IMG/VR virus record: IMGVR_UViG_3300045988_167063
Origin: a virus
Strand: one strand, 5' to 3'
DNA length: 64,000 nucleotides
Each line of letters opens with the position of its first letter. Position 1 is the stretch's first letter. Shown piece by piece: positions 6,351-41,051 of this stretch. A program made the position numbers and the translations under genes. The notes below the pieces were generated by a model. It saw nothing but the letters and a program-made list of their open reading frames with translations. It did no database searches and had not been told where the DNA came from.

Positions 6351-7982
6351 CTATTGATACTCACGACTGACCGCTCCACCCTCAGCTAAATCACTATTAT
6401 CCTTTTGTGGTGCGCCAATATCGTAAGTATTTGTATTAGCATTAAACAAGGCAAATAAAGTATTTTGCATATCACTATGTTTAGCCTCTTTTACCATTGT
6501 TTCAAATTCACTGCCCTCATAACCTAAAAGAGTTCCCCACTTTCTTAAAGGCACTTGTATTCCTTTATCAGATAATTTTAAATGAGTATCAATATCTTCT
6601 TTCCTCTTAAAAGGCAGTGTACTACCACTAACACGAAATCTAAATTTATATCTTTTAGTTTTCTTGTTTACAAAGAAATTTAAAAAGTTTTCAAATTGTG
6701 GATAAACTGCATTTGCAATTTCTTGATAATCAGCGTTTGCAGCCAACTGTGCCTCTTCTTGTGATAATCTTTCATCTGTATAAATAAGTGAACTATTTGA
6801 AGCACCTAAACCAGCACTTGTTTTAAGTTGATTTTTATACATATTACTATTATTATCAGCAAATTGATAAAGCCTTGTTTCTTCAAGAGGTAAAGCAATT
6901 TGCTTAATATTTTTGTTAATGCCATTTCTTGCCAATCTCATAAGTTGTCCGACAACTTTAGGGTCAATAGTAAAGGCATTTTTATTATTGCCAACATTAT
7001 CTTTATCTCTTGTTTTCATTTCTCCAAGAATAATTGCATTTGCAGAAATAATATCCTTATCTCTTTGTAATTTAGAAATTATATCATCATCAAATACTGA
7101 CTTTAATAAGGAAGTTAAAGGTGGAACAGTATTAAAATTAGAGGTATCATATTTAAACAACCAACTTCCTGCATTTACCTTTGTTCTTATATAATTTTCA
7201 GCATTAAAAGTATTTTGCCTACCCAAATTTGACATATTGTCTACAATAAAGTTTTGCATTTGTTTGCTATTATCTTTACTACTTTGTCCTAATTTAGAAT
7301 AGGCTTGGGCAAGTGTTTCGTCATAATTAAGAACATTTACATTTGAACCATTAAAATAATTCAAATTAAAATCCCATAAAAAGCCATTTGCCCCACTACT
7401 TATAAAACGACCTGTGAGTTTACAATACTTTTGTGGCATCATTTGTAATGAAAAAGACTCTTTATTATCGTTCAAATCAATCGGAGTATCGTCAAAAGTC
7501 TTTTCGCTATCTCTAAGCCAACAAAAATAAGTATCTGTTTTGAGCATATTTTTGACAACATTTCTAAATTCTTGTTTCGCTTTAAAATAATTAAAGAATT
7601 TATCTACTCTTTTGCAATCCTCTTTATACTCTTCACTTTCAAACTCATCATCGTCTACTATATTAATCGGAACTCTATCTATATCAAAAGCCAATAAATT
7701 TGTTTTATATTCTATTGCCCTTTTATAAATAGCATCCCAAGTTTCCATAAATTCGGAATAATCTTGTAATGTTTCAGCAGAATTTTTATAAGTAGCAATA
7801 GCTTGCCTTAAACTATCTCTGTCAGGTATTTGTTCATTATTATTTAAGTCAACTAATGTTTTATATTCGTTTATAGTATCATAAAAATAATTATTCTTAT
7901 CTAATGGTGCTGAACTATAAAGTGCGTTCATAAAATCAATTACATTCCACACTTCGTCACGAGTTATAACTTCATCAGGCAA
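6351..7982 (-). CDS. portal protein (putative)
   Basis: 543 aa immediately downstream of the terminase large subunit. TTG start about 10 nt after GGAGG. Called from size and position only. Confidence 0.55.
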   Translation of the reverse strand: MPDEVITRDEVWNVIDFMNALYSSAPLDKNNYFYDTINEYKTLVDLNNNEQIPDRDSLRQAIATYKNSAETLQDYSEFMETWDAIYKRAIEYKTNLLAFDIDRVPINIVDDDEFESEEYKEDCKRVDKFFNYFKAKQEFRNVVKNMLKTDTYFCWLRDSEKTFDDTPIDLNDNKESFSLQMMPQKYCKLTGRFISSGANGFLWDFNLNYFNGSNVNVLNYDETLAQAYSKLGQSSKDNSKQMQNFIVDNMSNLGRQNTFNAENYIRTKVNAGSWLFKYDTSNFNTVPPLTSLLKSVFDDDIISKLQRDKDIISANAIILGEMKTRDKDNVGNNKNAFTIDPKVVGQLMRLARNGINKNIKQIALPLEETRLYQFADNNSNMYKNQLKTSAGLGASNSSLIYTDERLSQEEAQLAANADYQEIANAVYPQFENFLNFFVNKKTKRYKFRFRVSGSTLPFKRKEDIDTHLKLSDKGIQVPLRKWGTLLGYEGSEFETMVKEAKHSDMQNTLFALFNANTNTYDIGAPQKDNSDLAEGGAVSREYQ

Positions 7983-8006: not shown

Positions 8007-8582
8007 TTAACCATAATCGTAAATATCACTGAAATCATCTAAATCAATTTCAGCATCTTGTTCATCTTTCACATACTTAATATAGACTTTATCACAAAAG
8101 TAATTAAACATTGCCAAAGTCATATATCTATCCTTTGTAGCTGTACTTTTTTCTTTAACTCTAACACCTTTATCTTTAAATTCTGTTGTTAAAGTAATTG
8201 CCTCATTAATAGCATACCTTGTTTCAACAAACGGTACAAGGTCATAAGCCTTCTTTTCAGAGGACTTCAATATCCATTTACTATCTTTTTCTTGAAATAG
8301 TAATTCCATTTCAGAGTCATCTTTAAGAAAACTAATTATATTATCTTTAAGATTTTTTCTCATCGCTAAGTGCATATCACTATTGATTTCACTTGTACCA
8401 GCAATAGGAATAATTACTTCTTCGGCATTAGAGTCCATAGTCCTATTAATTTTATCATTTATGATTTTATCAGAGCTTATTTGTAAAATTTTATCTCTAC
8501 ATACAGTCCACGCAGGATATGTAATATCTCTTTCATCATCATATGTTTCAGTTGTCAATAAATCAAAGAAAACATTTCCTAC
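8007..8582 (-). CDS. terL: terminase large subunit, exon 3 of 3
   Basis: Begins VGNVFFDLL..., which continues exon 2 (...YFVMDSKG) into a D-x-x-G-x-G nuclease-domain block. 576 nt, phase 0. The boundary is inferred. Confidence 0.7.
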   Translation of the reverse strand, partial: VGNVFFDLLTTETYDDERDITYPAWTVCRDKILQISSDKIINDKINRTMDSNAEEVIIPIAGTSEINSDMHLAMRKNLKDNIISFLKDDSEMELLFQEKDSKWILKSSEKKAYDLVPFVETRYAINEAITLTTEFKDKGVRVKEKSTATKDRYMTLAMFNYFCDKVYIKYVKDEQDAEIDLDDFSDIYDYG

Positions 8583-8937
8583 CAATTATGTTATCATATA
8601 AGTTTTTTATCTTATATTTCTTATAGTTGTATTTCCTATAAGTTCGGCGTACCTTTTCATCTAATAAATTTATTTATATAAAAATGACAAGTTTATTTTA
8701 TTTTTTTGCGTTCCAAAATACATATACTTCTTCACTTATTATCATTTATTACTACTAATTATTTATTAGATGCCGAGAACTCTTGGCAAAATTATATTCT
8801 ATAAAAATAGTTTCATTTGCTACGCTCTGCGTGTGACTATTCTTTTAAAAATAGCCTTCCACTCGGATTGACATTTCAGTTTTTCCGTTTCTTTCTCGGT
8901 TCGATTATATATCACTATATAAAAGGGCGAAGTTTTC
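8583..8937 (-). mobile_element. group-I-like intron, ORF-less (355 nt)
   Basis: Separates two in-phase terL exons and has an in-frame stop shortly after the 5' junction. The proposed junctions are GGU| and ...GAUAACAUAAUUG|. It shares conserved blocks (CCAAGAGU, GAACUUAU, GAUAAAA..CUUAUAUGAUAACA) with the other two intervening sequences. Confidence 0.6.
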
Positions 8938-9918
8938 ACCTTTTGAGTCCATAACAAAATATGTGCATTTATAATCATAAAATAATCTTTTTATCATTAC
9001 AATTTGTTTTTGAGAATTTAAACCATTTTCGGCTTTTATATACTCTACTTTTCTTTGATTTGTTTCTATATCTATATTTCCTAATACAAAAACTGTATTA
9101 TCGTTTTCTCTACCACCACTAACGGCAATATCCATTGCCAATACTCTTATTTCATTTTCGTGACTAAAATCATATTTATTTTTAATATTATAATAATAGT
9201 CATCATTTGTAGTTGGTAAAAAAGCAGTTTCAAGCACTTGATTTTTATGAAAATCATCATACAAAAACAAACTACCTTCTGTTTCACCAAGCCACAAATT
9301 CAAAAACTCCATTTCAAAATCCAAATCATTTGTATTTTCTCGTCTTGTTAAATACTGATTTTTTGTTTGAATTTTATTAGCAACTGCTGTAAATATATCA
9401 CCTGCAAAAAAGCCATATTTAATTCTTTTATCTGTGTAATGCTTTCTAACTACTGTTTTTAAATAAGTCCAAACCCAATTATCTTTCGTTCTTGCCGAAG
9501 TCATAAATATTTGCTTTGGCTCAATCATTAACCCATTAAAACTATATGGCTCAAGCATAGGTTCAACAATAGACTCATAGTCTCTTTTCTTAACAATTCT
9601 TGCCTCATCTGTTATAGTTATATTAGCTCTTGCACCACGACCTGTTTCATTACACGCAACAGCGAATATTTTACTACCATTGCCATATTCGACAACTCTA
9701 CCACCTGTTGTTTTATCTTTTGTAAAGTTAATATAGCCATCTGCTCGTAGTTGTTTTAAAATAGGACTTATGCCTTTTTTGTCACTACTTAACAACTTAT
9801 CAATTTTATCATCAATAATTTTATTACTTTGACCTAAAGTAAGCGAAGTAATAGCAATTTGAACTCCGGGTAAAAGCAAAGCAAGGTCATTGGCGAGAAC
9901 ACCTATGGTAAAGGATTT
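8938..9918 (-). CDS. terL: terminase large subunit, exon 2 of 3
   Basis: Begins K-SFTIGVL, which completes the Walker A motif started in exon 1. Contains VLAMDIAVSGGRENDNTVFVLG, a nuclease Asp motif. 981 nt, phase 0. Confidence 0.7.
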
Positions 9919-10204
9919 CAATTTTGTTATCGTATAGGCTCTTTATCCTATACTTCTTATACTGTACTAATTTTCGTATAAGTTCAGAGTACATTTTCAT
10001 ACATAAATACAGAGTATGTGGACACTCTTGGTGATATTATATTCTTCCATTTCAAAAGTTTCAATCACTACTCGTTACAATACTATTAATTTTTACATTA
10101 AATAGTTATCTCGGTGTTGTACTTAAAATTAGTGTAGTTTCACCGATTTTGCCCAATTTGCTTTATAACTATCTATAATTCATTATAAAGGAGCATTATT
10201 ATTT
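9919..10204 (-). mobile_element. group-I-like intron, ORF-less (286 nt)
   Basis: Interrupts the Walker A codons. The 5' exon ends in U (AGU|), followed directly by AAAUAA (a stop). The intron ends ...CCUAUACGAUAACAAAAUUG|. It belongs to the same sequence family as 8583-8937 and 15073-15962. Confidence 0.6.
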
Positions 10205-10444
10205 ACTCAATCCTCTACTTGCAATAAACGCATAAATATCATATTCCCAACAGTCAAGTAATACTTGTCTTTGAAAATAATGTAGTGGTATTTTTAAATG
10301 TTCTTCAGTAAAAATATCAAGATTATTAAGATAAAATAATTGCCAATTAGCAATTCTCCTATCATAATCTTTTTTACTCAATTTTTTATTTTCTTTTATT
10401 TTCTTTTCTTTTGCCAAGCTAATAAGTTGTTTTTCGTCAATCAA
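10205..10444 (-). CDS. terL: terminase large subunit, exon 1 of 3
   Basis: Ends ...FIASRGLS. Joined to exon 2 it reads SRGLSKS, comparable with the T4 gp17 Walker A motif SRQLGKT. 240 nt, phase 0. Confidence 0.7.
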
Positions 10445-11381
10445 GATTATATTTGTCTATGTCATCAATAGATAAATTAAAATCTCTATTGCCTGCCAAC
10501 ATATTTCCTAACGGTCTTAAAACCATATCTTTTTCATATTGATGTACTTTATTGAGGTCATAATATCTGCTTGGCTCTGAATATACATCCTCGACATTAT
10601 TTTCGTCTACAAGTCTTATCTTTTCAAACAAAGACTGTTCCGAAGCCGTTTTAGGCTTATTGCTTTCATATTCATCAATACGAAGTTTATTCATATCTCT
10701 TATAATTCGATTTTGAACTTTATCTCTTGTTTCTTCACCACTATATGAACCGTCATCAATTTTTCTCAATAGCAATCTATCTCTACATAAATCACGATAA
10801 AGGTCATCTTGCGGTTCATTTATGATTTCTACATTTTTTGTATATCTCTCATAGGTTCTTTCAAGATATTGATAATCTTCTGAACTTTCTTGTTTTCCCC
10901 AATTAAGTTCAAATTCATCAAGTTCTTTTTGTCTTAATTCTCGTTGTTCTATTCTACTATCAATATCACTTAAATTAACATTTGTTGCTGATAATTCATT
11001 CCAAATATTCTTTTTAGTTTTTGACTTATGTAATTCAGAAATATACAATCCCAAATAATTGTTCATTCGTTTGCCTTCTTTGCGACCTTCTTTCATTCGG
11101 TTTTCGACACCTGCCCAAACCTCAAGAATAAAAGGAATGTCATTTCGCAAACAAGTATAATAAACGGCTGATTTCATACTACAACCATTTTTAATATAAT
11201 AATCAATCATTTTTTGACAACAATCTTTACAATAAGGTGTATGCCCACTTGCAAAAGGTGACCAACTTTCGTAAAAATTAGTCGCACCTCTCATACCACT
11301 ACACCCTAATTCTGTATTATTGCCGAGGCAAAGAAACATATCGGTTTCCTTTTTTATGTTTTTAGAAGCCAACGCTTTCAC
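10437..11381 (-). CDS. terminase small subunit (putative)
   Basis: Its stop overlaps the terL start by 8 nt. Cys-rich N-terminal region followed by a charged helical region. The likelier start is the ATG at 11339 (MFLCLGNN...), which is preceded by AAGGAA. Confidence 0.4.
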   Translation of the reverse strand: MKALASKNIKKETDMFLCLGNNTELGCSGMRGATNFYESWSPFASGHTPYCKDCCQKMIDYYIKNGCSMKSAVYYTCLRNDIPFILEVWAGVENRMKEGRKEGKRMNNYLGLYISELHKSKTKKNIWNELSATNVNLSDIDSRIEQRELRQKELDEFELNWGKQESSEDYQYLERTYERYTKNVEIINEPQDDLYRDLCRDRLLLRKIDDGSYSGEETRDKVQNRIIRDMNKLRIDEYESNKPKTASEQSLFEKIRLVDENNVEDVYSEPSRYYDLNKVHQYEKDMVLRPLGNMLAGNRDFNLSIDDIDKYNLD

Positions 11382-11450: not shown

Positions 11451-12647
11451 TTAATTTAATACTATTGTAAAATCTGCCACTTTACCTTTATTTTCCTCAT
11501 AGCAAATAAGACTTGCAGAAGCGTCAGCAGACTTTCTTATTCTCATAGAATAATCATCTATACCTACAACAGAAGCCACGCCAATAGCACCTCTACGCAC
11601 ACCACAGTTGGCATATTCATTATAATGCTTATGCCCTGCAATAATATAGTCAATATTTATGCCATAAATTTCTCTATAATCTTTAATTGCACGACTTAAA
11701 TCTTTAACTTCTCCGTGAATACCGAGAAAATTAAAGCCAGCAATGGTATCATAAATAAATCCTGTTTTATTTTCTTTAAAAGTAAAGTTAGGATTATCTT
11801 TATTTTTAATTTTAATGATATTAGCAATTATTTTATCTGTTGTTTCACAAAGATGTTCATTCTTTTTACCGTCAAGCAATCTTAATTCATCGTGGTTGCC
11901 TGCCGTTTGGTTATAAATAATTTTTGTATATTTTGATAATTCTAAAAGCCATTCGCCTATATAATTACCAAAGTTAATTGCACTATCAACTACACCATAT
12001 CTTAAAGACCAAAGTTGAGAATTTCTTATAAAACCTTCCGTACTATCTCCAAGATTGTTAATGTGTAATTCTTTAATGTCAAACAACTTTATTTTTTCAA
12101 TAGTTTCAGATAAAATTGTTTCCATTCTCTGTTCAAAAATTTCAGGACTATATTCATTGATAATTTCATTCATAAGTCCATAAACTTTAATATCTTTTCC
12201 ATAATGGCAATCTGCAAAATTTAATTGCCAACCTAATTTGCTATGTTCGACAGGAATAGGTTTAATATTAACAGAGTTGCAATTTTCATTGATTGACTCA
12301 ATTACTTTTTCTTCAAAAAGTTCATCTCTTGCATTTTCACGCAACCATCTGTTATATTCAAGTTTTTCTGTTTGTAGTTTCTTTCGTTCTTTTTCAAGTT
12401 CCCTTGTTTGTTCTTTTATGTCATTCAAAAGTTCTTCACTATCAGCAAATTTAGATTGGTTAGCAACCATTATTTTTTGAAAAGATTGATATTTTTTTCT
12501 ATAAGCACTTTCAGAATAGTTATTATCTAATAATTCATTAAGAATTTTTGCTACATCTTGCCAAGTGCCAATAATATCCTTTTCAGAACAGACACGATAA
12601 ATCAATTCATCTTCTGTTTCGTTTTCAAATCTCTTATAGGTCATCAT
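11451..12647 (-). CDS. calcineurin-like metallophosphoesterase with N-terminal coiled-coil region
   Basis: The motifs NNLGDSTEG, TAGNHDE, LGIHGE and IAGHKHY match the GD / GNH(D/E) / GH signature set. Confidence 0.7.
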   Translation of the reverse strand: MMTYKRFENETEDELIYRVCSEKDIIGTWQDVAKILNELLDNNYSESAYRKKYQSFQKIMVANQSKFADSEELLNDIKEQTRELEKERKKLQTEKLEYNRWLRENARDELFEEKVIESINENCNSVNIKPIPVEHSKLGWQLNFADCHYGKDIKVYGLMNEIINEYSPEIFEQRMETILSETIEKIKLFDIKELHINNLGDSTEGFIRNSQLWSLRYGVVDSAINFGNYIGEWLLELSKYTKIIYNQTAGNHDELRLLDGKKNEHLCETTDKIIANIIKIKNKDNPNFTFKENKTGFIYDTIAGFNFLGIHGEVKDLSRAIKDYREIYGINIDYIIAGHKHYNEYANCGVRRGAIGVASVVGIDDYSMRIRKSADASASLICYEENKGKVADFTIVLN

Positions 12648-40073: not shown

Positions 40074-41051
40074 GAAGTTAAGAGTTGAGCAATTAGAGAT
40101 TATACTTACTTGTTTGTTTTCATAATGTATACCTCTTTCAATTAAAATAATTTACCTCCAAAAAAAATATATAAAACAGGTAGGTGTAATCTTTAATTGC
40201 TCAACCAAATATAGAGAGTTAGTATAATAGTAGTACAACAGACTTTGAATCTGTCGGAAAAGGGGCAGAACCTTTACTCTCTGCCAATCCCTAACGGCGA
40301 GGGTTATAATGTGTCCGTACATAAGATGAAATCAAATTCCCTAAATGGAGAGTAATCGTGTGTCGTTTTAGGTTTTGCGACTATAAATAATAATTACTTT
40401 GTATAGTCTTTTAGGGTGACTCCAAAGAGTGAGATAATATCAAGAGTGGGTGTGTAAGTTTTGGTAGTTCTTATAGTCAAAATACTACTAAGCACAATAT
40501 GATAATAGTGAGGTTCTAATTAAATATTATTATTTAATATTCCGACTATTTGATAGTGCTTTTATGTGGCAAAAGATATTAAGGAATTTAGCCACGGATT
40601 TTTAATTCAAAATCTAAAATTCCATTAGACAGTTAGCCATTTAAGTGGCAGTGTGTTAAGCACAGAAGATTTTAGGCAAGTTAGTCAAGCCTTCGGTTAA
40701 GAAAGACTTAATTGAAAACGGACTACACGCAGTCTGAGCGTGACAAAATCAAGTGTGGTGACTTGAAAAGAAAGATAAGAAAAGCCAAATACTAATTATT
40801 ACCAAAATAAGTTAGGACTTTTTGTATTGAGTGGGTTATTGACCTATCCATAGTTTTTCTAATGTTGTAATTTTACGATAAAAGAGTGTGCATTATTTTA
40901 TACGAATTTTACAACACCGACTTTGCATTGTTTTTTTCTTTGCTCTGACATACGGCAAATTAAATATAGTATGTTATTTATGGCAGATATAGTCCAAGTA
41001 AGGCATCTATTAACTAAATAGAAAATAAGAGTTCAATTCTCTTTATCTGCC
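40074..41051 (+). ncRNA. candidate large structured non-coding RNA / tRNA-like precursor (class unknown)
   Basis: About 1 kb with no ORF of 60 aa or more on either strand and no RBS-preceded small ORF, transcribed from a consensus promoter. It has a 32-bp uninterrupted helix (40084-40115 with 40174-40205) containing 4 G-U pairs that would be C-A mismatches on the opposite strand. It also has cloverleaf-like modules at 40213-40286 and 40982-41051 and several further local helices. Confidence 0.5.
40213..40286 (+). tRNA. tRNA-like gene, anticodon UUG (Gln), non-canonical D/T loops, encoded CCA
   Basis: Hand fold. Acceptor AGAGAGT/ACTCTCT (7 bp). D stem GTAT/GTAC. Anticodon stem ACAGA/TCTGT with loop CTTTGAA. 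T stem AAAGG/CCTTT with loop GGCAGAA. Then GCCA at the 3' end. It lacks the usual D-loop GG and T-loop TTC. Confidence 0.4.

Follow-up and report, generated by a model that had tools for sequence, protein, structure and literature searches.

How does a phage come to encode its large terminase subunit (TerL) in three pieces? This question is raised by a stretch of 64,000 nucleotides (nt) from IMG/VR virus record IMGVR_UViG_3300045988_167063—hereafter the window, to the whole of which coordinates refer unless another locus is named. Three open reading frames (ORFs) follow one another on its minus strand, at 10444-10199, 9921-8905 and 8585-8007, and an initial annotation, made from the letters alone, had taken them for a single terL gene divided by two ORF-less, group-I-like introns. 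Our analysis led to the same view in a stronger form: positions 10444-8007 (minus strand) very probably represent the large terminase gene of the phage, a homologue of YonF, carrying two ORF-less, self-splicing group I introns that belong to one widespread family of phage introns. The predicted arrangement of the gene is the following.

10205..10444, minus strand: terL exon 1, 240 nt (80 codons), TTG start, final base U
9919..10204, minus strand: intron 1, 286 nt, starting AAAUAAUAA and ending AAAAUUG, ORF-less, type-A subfamily
8938..9918, minus strand: terL exon 2, 981 nt, KSFTIGVL...YFVMDSKG, final base U
8583..8937, minus strand: intron 2, 355 nt, starting GAAAAC and ending AUAAUUG, ORF-less, type-B subfamily
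8007..8582, minus strand: terL exon 3, 576 nt with the stop codon, VGNVFFDLL...DIYDYG

Once joined, the exons form one frame of 598 amino acids (aa). A protein search with this conceptual spliced product returned uninterrupted 598-aa proteins that are 91-99% identical to it—the top match being named 'large terminase' in its source database—together with hundreds of further relatives of the same length at 50-68% identity. Exon 1 is collinear with residues 1-80 of the uninterrupted homologues, e.g., P0001 (99% identical). The spliced product also matched PHROG 2, 'terminase large subunit' (E 1.5e-19), and tblastn aligned it over 90% of its length with YonF of phage SPbeta and with annotated terminases of Enterocloster and Thomasclavelia phages at 29-32% identity (about 29% for YonF). 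Since a Pfam search of the spliced protein gave no match, its identity as TerL rests on PHROGs, tblastn and the database name; the proposal that the three ORFs amount to one TerL, and that the spliced protein would align with TerL families, is borne out by these results.

Each of the two inserts breaks a recognizable motif. Exon 1 ends ...GCA AGT AGA GGA TTG AGT (ASRGLS), and joining it to the KS that opens exon 2 restores the Walker A motif, as had been suggested. Exon 2 holds the remainder of the ATPase domain and the start of the nuclease domain, where intron 2 lies after the first G of a D-x-x-G-x-G block that is restored across exons 2 and 3. This block aligns weakly with VVADTWGVGD in the nuclease domain of the Thermus phage G20c terminase (PDB sequence search; a marginal match, E about 0.5).

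The predicted ligated junctions read GGATTGAGT joined to AAATCCTTT at intron 1 and CAAAAGGT joined to GTAGGAAAT at intron 2. Shared bases let the junctions shift by 3 nt (AAA) at intron 1 and by 1 nt (G) at intron 2. At intron 1, only the chosen placement gives a U before the intron and a G at its end; at intron 2, a final G results either way, but U is left as the last exon base by the chosen placement alone. The terminal G (omega G), within ...AAUUG in both introns, recurs in every family member whose 3' junction is fixed by the reading frame. Reading on from the exons, the first in-frame stop is met at codon 2 in intron 1 and at codon 11 in intron 2. The longest stop-free stretches on the intron strand are 39 aa and 38 aa, respectively, and neither intron holds an endonuclease ORF in a peripheral loop (no stop-free stretch exceeds 39 aa). 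The ORF-less character ascribed to both inserts at the outset is thus upheld.

Natural alleles provide direct evidence on the extent of the inserts. The DNA of relatives designated L123-125, L126-128, L155 and L156, with exons 94-98% identical to those of the window, was aligned to the window, and four states of the gene were found.

L123-125: allele without introns, with gaps of exactly 286 and 355 nt relative to the window
L126-128: allele with intron 1 only, without the 355 nt
L155: allele with intron 2 only, without the 286 nt
L156: allele with both introns, no gap relative to the window

These exact gaps indicate that the inserts are discrete units, gained or lost independently, the removal of which restores an intact gene; the interruption of terL by such exact inserts is far beyond chance. 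The junctions first proposed, with 240 + 981 + 576 nt of exon sequence and 598 aa of product, prove correct to the base, as does the pattern of 5' exons ending in U and introns ending in G. Moreover, intron-bearing alleles are common, being represented by dozens of member sequences and, for P0011, by at least 10 contigs.

What kind of element are these inserts? Both can be folded into a group I core, with the following predicted elements.

10194-10191, minus strand: intron 1, P1 internal guide sequence GCUC
10190-10161, minus strand: intron 1, P2
10155-10151 with 10023-10019, minus strand: intron 1, P3, with AAAA as J3/4
10146-10141 with 10116-10111, minus strand: intron 1, P4
10136-10120, minus strand: intron 1, P5
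10110-10079, minus strand: intron 1, P6
10075-10069 with 9991-9986, minus strand: intron 1, P7
10068-10031, minus strand: intron 1, P7.1 domain
10018-9998, minus strand: intron 1, P8
9982-9956, minus strand: intron 1, P9
9953-9932, minus strand: intron 1, P9.1
9919, minus strand: intron 1, terminal G
8928-8922, minus strand: intron 2, P1 internal guide sequence GCCCUUU
8921-8906, minus strand: intron 2, P2
8899-8893 with 8779-8773, minus strand: intron 2, P3
8887-8884 with 8867-8864, minus strand: intron 2, P4
8862-8831, minus strand: intron 2, P6
8827-8821 with 8651-8646, minus strand: intron 2, P7
8820-8786, minus strand: intron 2, P7.1 domain
8772-8658, minus strand: intron 2, long P8 arm
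8642-8620, minus strand: intron 2, P9
8617-8596, minus strand: intron 2, P9.1
8583, minus strand: intron 2, terminal G

Covariation was examined in two alignments, A4 (13 ORF-less type-A introns, including intron 1) and A6 (11 type-B introns, including intron 2). On the type-A set, RNAalifold found P3, P4, P5, P6, a two-part hairpin separating P7 from P3', P8, P9 and P9.1 unaided, and core helices were likewise predicted by it on the type-B set; P7 was added by hand, because it crosses P3 and therefore lies beyond the reach of that program. In the type-A sequences, 95.9% of cells are paired, compared with 32-47% in slid controls, and 41 of the 57 pairs are compensatory; in the type-B sequences the corresponding values are 96.9%, 31-39% and 40 of 61. 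The number of cells paired was reached by none of 500 shuffles in either set. P3 pairs at 5-7 of its 7 positions (16 sequences), and the extra domain of IA type between P7 and P3' has a closing helix of 5 base pairs (bp) that is paired in 100% of cells, with four of the five pairs compensatory, and an inner helix of 3-4 bp. Covariation supports P8 in type A only: the type-B P8 was excluded from the formal count because MAFFT aligns the variable arm inconsistently, and P8 of intron 2 rests on its own 12-bp stem. When folded as a single sequence, intron 2 gave z = -3.9, with P2, P3, P4, P6, P7.1, P8, P9 and P9.1 recovered.

P7 could be followed through 43 unique family sequences. All six of its pairs are standard and three positions covary, the variants being GCGUA/UACGC, GCAUA/UAUGC and GAGUA/UACUC, with G-C or A-U as the outer pair. 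One bulged nucleotide (A or C) always adjoins an invariant G-C pair—the arrangement of the guanosine-binding helix—and the helix reads A-C-GAGUA/UACUCU in intron 1 and G-A-GCGUA/UACGCC in intron 2. An alternative P7 (CUUAUAC with GUAUAGG) was dropped, being broken in intron 2. The 3' module had likewise been read at first as two hairpins with no room for P7', a reading overturned by covariation, which places P7' upstream (GUACKCY) and identifies the two hairpins as P9 and P9.1.

P1 pairings at the 5' splice site were identified by visual inspection, not by a statistical test. In intron 1, GAGU at the exon end pairs with GCUC over 4 bp; in intron 2, AAAAGGU faces GCCCUUU over 7 positions with one A.C mismatch; and in L008, L033 and L107, GGGU pairs with GCCC. 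A U.G pair occurs at the splice site in all five introns in which that site could be fixed.

Substitutions among close relatives follow the same structure. Intron 1 differs between the window and its nearest relatives at 4-6 positions: two of these are the two sides of the P9.1 closing pair (G-C to A-U), other paired changes convert G-C to G.U in P4 and U.G to U-A in the inner P7.1 helix, and the remaining differences lie in loops. Differences and indels in intron 2 fall chiefly in the peripheral P8 arm. Intron 1 is conserved at least as well as the exons in all three relatives compared (L126, L022 and L156); the same holds for intron 2 in L155 (99.2%), while in L156 its conservation is comparable with that of the exons (97.7% vs 97.6-98.3%). 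On this evidence, introns 1 and 2 appear to be ordinary group I introns of IA-type architecture, with a full P3-P9 core and a P3/P7 pseudoknot. The four allele states and the covarying core together support the interpretation given in the initial annotation, whose 'group-I-like' can be upgraded to ordinary group I of IA type.

Introns 1 and 2 share a module of ~90 nt at their 3' end. The 3' domains of 32 family members—with the window and its near-identical relatives excluded—served to build a covariance model, R1, which was run on the whole window with filters off. It matched intron 1 at 10078-9925 (116.2 bits, E 4.9e-21) and intron 2 in two parts split by the long P8 arm, 8830-8737 (44.1 bits) and 8652-8589 (47.1 bits). 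A further element was matched at 15219-15078 (94.4 bits), and nothing above 15 bits was found elsewhere in the window. This element is the 3' part of a third predicted intron, which interrupts a polymerase-like gene.

15962-15073, minus strand: third family intron, 890 nt, phase 1, ending ...ACAUAUUG
15862-15245, minus strand: endonuclease ORF of the third intron, 205 aa, NUMOD4 + HNH_3
17772-15963 and 15072-14099, minus strand: gene split by the third intron, splicing to 927 aa with the junction ...DRTNG S DFDSDF...

Here P1 reads GGCU with GGUC, and P7 is canonical (GACUA/UAGUCU). RF00028, the Rfam group I intron model, scored 37.9 bits on this element (E 6.7e-8), below its gathering score of 50 bits, and placed P7, the insert, P3', P8 and P9 as assigned here; this match links the family to curated group I introns. 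The sole annotated relative of the 927-aa product, from Enterocloster phage PMBT24, bears the label 'RNA-dependent RNA polymerase'. Its DFDSD block is reminiscent of the motif that binds metal in YonO-like two-barrel RNA polymerases; on this view, the third intron would lie beside a catalytic motif.

How, then, would a whole TerL be made? The terL pre-mRNA would be transcribed through both introns, each of which would fold into a core made up of the P4-P6 and P3-P8 domains, the second linked to P7 through the P3/P7 pseudoknot, together with the IA-type domain between P7 and P3', and P9 and P9.1. The G-C pair beside the P7 bulge would bind a free guanosine, and this would attack the bond following the last U of the exon; that U is predicted to form a U.G wobble with the guide sequence, through GAGU/GCUC at intron 1 and AAAAGGU/GCCCUUU at intron 2. 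The exon end thus released would then attack after the terminal G of the intron (9919 or 8583), and ligation of the exons would yield one 598-codon frame in which the Walker A motif is whole again, as is the D-x-x-G-x-G block of the nuclease domain. On unspliced RNA, translation would end at codon 2 or 11 of the intron, before the catalytic core is reached. Both the splicing and its autocatalytic nature are inferred. As the two introns have no endonuclease of their own, they probably spread by recombination or with an endonuclease acting in trans. The earlier term 'homing introns' therefore fits only in part, since neither intron 1 nor intron 2 has an endonuclease gene.

Several points weigh against self-splicing group I introns at this locus. 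First, cmscan with RF00028—the very check that had been proposed for the two inserts—gave no match to intron 1 or 2, either at the gathering score in the window or at E<=10 in 8400-10400. Second, the support for splicing comes from DNA sequence. Third, P1 is short in intron 1 (4 bp) and A.C-mismatched in intron 2, and no convincing P10 pairing was found in either. Additionally, the single-sequence fold of intron 1 only modestly beats shuffles (z = -1.9, 8 of 200), and the 27-nt spliced junction of intron 1, with intron-type flanks, was absent from the viral and metagenome contig collections, a weak test in collections that are essentially DNA. Finally, the family was gathered by sequence pattern, and conservation of the pattern blocks is thereby given by construction; this does not apply to the covariation of the helices.

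The first of these points can be addressed from the behavior of the model itself. Rfam likewise gave no group I or group II match on three homologous loci in GenBank phages, and yet RF00028 works on such material, scoring 53-94 bits for canonical introns elsewhere in viral contigs that carry family members. A study of Bastillevirinae from 2025 describes the Rfam model as incomplete and liable to miss phage variants (PMC11878797). We therefore read the RF00028 miss as a limit of the model and not of the introns; taken by itself, the proposed scan would have led to a wrong rejection of the idea.

Three other accounts of the locus deserve consideration. The gene could be dead or naturally split, with inserts that are decayed remnants of mobile elements kept in the RNA, and with either no full-length TerL or a TerL assembled from three polypeptides. 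This account is compatible with public gene callers reporting the pieces as separate proteins (P0011, P0012 and P0067) and with the TTG starts of the exon 2 and exon 3 ORFs, which fall at the very end of the preceding intron (1 and 2, respectively). We nevertheless consider it highly improbable: every core helix of the ribozyme family is kept under covariation in both inserts, the substitutions relative to close relatives preserve structure, the introns are as well conserved as noted above (intron 1 at or above its flanking coding sequence; intron 2 likewise in L155 and comparably in L156), and intron-bearing alleles are common. Furthermore, separate polypeptides broken inside the Walker A and nuclease motifs could hardly function.

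There is also only a slim chance that the inserts are removed from the RNA in a way that is not autocatalytic—as group I-derived introns in need of a phage or host maturase or chaperone, or as introns splicing so poorly that terminase output is throttled. The short or mismatched P1, the unclear P10 and the very A+U-rich composition of both introns (27% G+C) would suit this account, and many organellar group I introns are protein-dependent. Against this, the phage group I introns tested to date (T4, Twort and SPO1) generally self-splice in vitro. Both terL introns have a complete, conserved catalytic core, and the introns of Bastillevirinae have been confirmed experimentally (PMC11878797). An element of another class—whether a translational bypass (hop), an intein, a group II intron or DNA cut out ahead of expression—has nothing in its favor beyond the bare interruption of the gene and is exceedingly unlikely. 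The inserts start AAAUA and GAAAA and end UUG, and thus have neither the 5' GUGYG (as already remarked in the initial annotation) nor the 3' AY of group II introns, a class further defined by domain V and for which 286 and 355 nt would also be small; Rfam gave no group II match in the window at the gathering score or in 8400-10400 at E<=10; the stops at codons 2 and 11 exclude inteins, as had been argued; the lengths are far above the 50 nt of the T4 gene 60 bypass; no terminal inverted repeats or target duplications were evident by eye, with no repeat search run and only AAA and G as shared end bases; and the pattern of RNA covariation fits group I.

With self-splicing group I introns as the preferred reading, the exon sequence around intron 1 raises a further question, i.e., how the intron entered its site.

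10183..10228, minus strand: putative homing-site region of intron 1, with 12 synonymous differences in 24 nt round the splice site

Alleles bearing intron 1 read GCA AGT AGA GGA TTG AGT ahead of the intron and AAA TCC after it, whereas alleles without it read GCT TCT CGT GGA TTA TCT AAG AGT (intron-less form of the site, GCTTCTCGTGGATTATCTAAGAGT). These 12 mismatches make up the densest 24-nt window in terL, where the mean is 1.56, and the sequence is identical on both flanks. Among the five alleles compared, the synonymous block is perfectly associated with the presence of intron 1. The pattern would fit both co-conversion, in which the intron brought a short stretch of exon sequence along with it, and the selection of intron-less alleles for resistance to a homing endonuclease.

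How far does this intron family extend? A blastn search against GenBank phages returned 53 records in which only the inserts match, from Clostridium, Staphylococcus, Mammaliicoccus, Bacillus, Enterocloster and crAss-like phages. By sequence pattern, family members were located in more than 119 IMG/VR contigs and in 26 representative bacterial genome contigs, mostly of Bacillota; in the latter, matches were to the intron RNA only, and none was to the phage genes. In the three records inspected, the family RNA directly follows an annotated HNH or homing-endonuclease gene. In Staphylococcus phage 6ec (L001, NC_024355: 20536-28605), the HNH gene and the family RNA lie inside a split tape-measure gene, and in crAss-like phage cr111_1 (L003, NC_055880: 10981-13396) they lie inside a split major head (major-capsid) gene; in Clostridium phage CP39-O (L002), the family RNA follows an HNH gene, and no split host gene was found at the locus. 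The 6ec and cr111_1 records annotate the gene halves and the intervening HNH gene as separate genes, and no intron is annotated. Judging from the RNA blocks 3' of the ORF, the endonuclease ORFs of homologous RNAs are placed in the P5 or P7.1 loops; in other relatives, the P1 loop holds an ORF that stops just short of the internal guide.

Type-B introns were also observed in L030, L048, L060, L082 and L111, just upstream of the putative terL Walker B motif (3' exons ...VFFDEA, ...CFDES or ...IFDES), and in the distant terL of L107 at the same D-x-x-G-x-G nuclease site as in the window, with ...LDTMG before the intron and LGLG... after it. The presence of type-B introns at several terL sites indicates that one intron core serves several terL targets. 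Some loci are unusually intron-dense: L008 (6169-8763) and L023 (1124-3120) each hold one family member together with 3-5 canonical RF00028 introns within 2-3 kb. At about positions 1-60 of L100, the 3' end of another family intron (…GGAUAAAGAGCCGAUAGGAUAACAACCUUG) occurs less than 120 nt upstream of the P3 of the next intron, which starts near 700, and suggests two family introns with a very short exon between them.

A bolder reading, which we put forward tentatively and hold to be rather doubtful, is that the family of introns 1 and 2 represents an abundant, so far unclassified group I clade, and that the block of 12 changes records a live contest of a trans-acting homing endonuclease with its terL target. 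The marks of such a clade may be the P7 variant GCGUA/UACGC, the invariant blocks GAAUAUAAU and CCAAGAGU, and the pair of P9 and P9.1; it may occur in phages of gut Bacillota and in crAss-like phages, unseen by standard models. Were the clade real, many split phage genes would go unannotated; were the endonuclease contest real, ORF-less introns would depend on an enzyme encoded elsewhere (collaborative homing).

Terminase introns are otherwise no novelty. Phage terminase genes with group I introns were already known in the 1990s; introns 1 and 2 belong to a well-described type and open no new biological question. Lactobacillus phage LL-H carries a terminase intron. In prophages of the Bacillus cereus group, terminase and tape-measure genes contain the group I introns term-IVS1, term-IVS2 and TMP-IVS1 to TMP-IVS3, classed as IA1 or IA2 (Tourasse and Kolsto 2008, PMC2504315), and phage and prophage introns of these two genes lie in frame at conserved motifs, with early stops and with or without endonuclease genes (PMC2504315). 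TerL introns are also found in Bastillevirinae (PMC11878797). The window introns resemble all three cases—B. cereus prophages, Bastillevirinae and LL-H—in the kind of host gene and the in-frame insertion at its most conserved motifs, in stops within the first intron bases, upstream of the core, and in a family that unites ORF-less and endonuclease-bearing copies, with one core adapted to different homing sites. Relatives of the window introns are also located in a Staphylococcus phage tape-measure gene. Unlike those cases, the host here is an SPbeta-like phage from gut metagenomes, with two ORF-less introns in one terL and a third member in a polymerase-like gene.

The RF00028 consensus resembles the T4 td and Twort type of subgroup IA2. 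Shared with it are the P3-P9 topology, the P3/P7 pseudoknot, the bulged P7 with its G-C pair, the insert between P7 and P3', the A-rich J3/4 and the terminal G. However, P7 of introns 1 and 2 is G(C/A)GUA/UAC(G/U)C and not GACUA/UAGUC, and there are other differences in the core. The IA2 type has two separate hairpins, P7.1 and P7.2; in the window introns, by contrast, the extra domain forms a single two-part hairpin, P7.1 plus an inner helix. Staphylococcus phage Twort has three self-splicing group I introns in orf142, and SPbeta has introns in bnrdE and bnrdF. As in these systems, a single essential phage gene contains several small group I introns, variably present and in part ORF-less; the host gene is a different one, and the window phage is distant from SPbeta. 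We know of no report of the SPbeta terL (yonF) itself being interrupted.

These findings bear on annotation. The locus should be described as a two-intron gene for a single large terminase of 598 aa rather than as three hypothetical proteins, and the same applies to its public relatives. A clean RF00028 negative does not exclude a phage group I intron, given that a family of hundreds of copies falls below the reach of the model. Finally, with its four allele states (about 94-98% identity) and recoded target site, this terL lends itself to the study of how ORF-less introns are gained and lost in nature.

The genomic neighborhood is in line with the origin of the gene. In relatives, genes of this neighborhood carry YonJ, YonG and YonD Pfam families, indicating that the phage is a distant SPbeta-like phage.

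6351-7982, minus strand: portal protein gene (PHROG 2739, E 8e-35), downstream of terL
10437-11381 and 11451-12647, minus strand: YonG-like and YonJ-like genes, upstream of terL, labelled from the Pfam families of their equivalents in relatives

The YonG-like ORF overlaps the start of terL by 8 nt. Elsewhere in the window, Rfam identified two tRNA genes on the plus strand, at 40213-40283 (51.8 bits) and 40983-41051 (44.7 bits).

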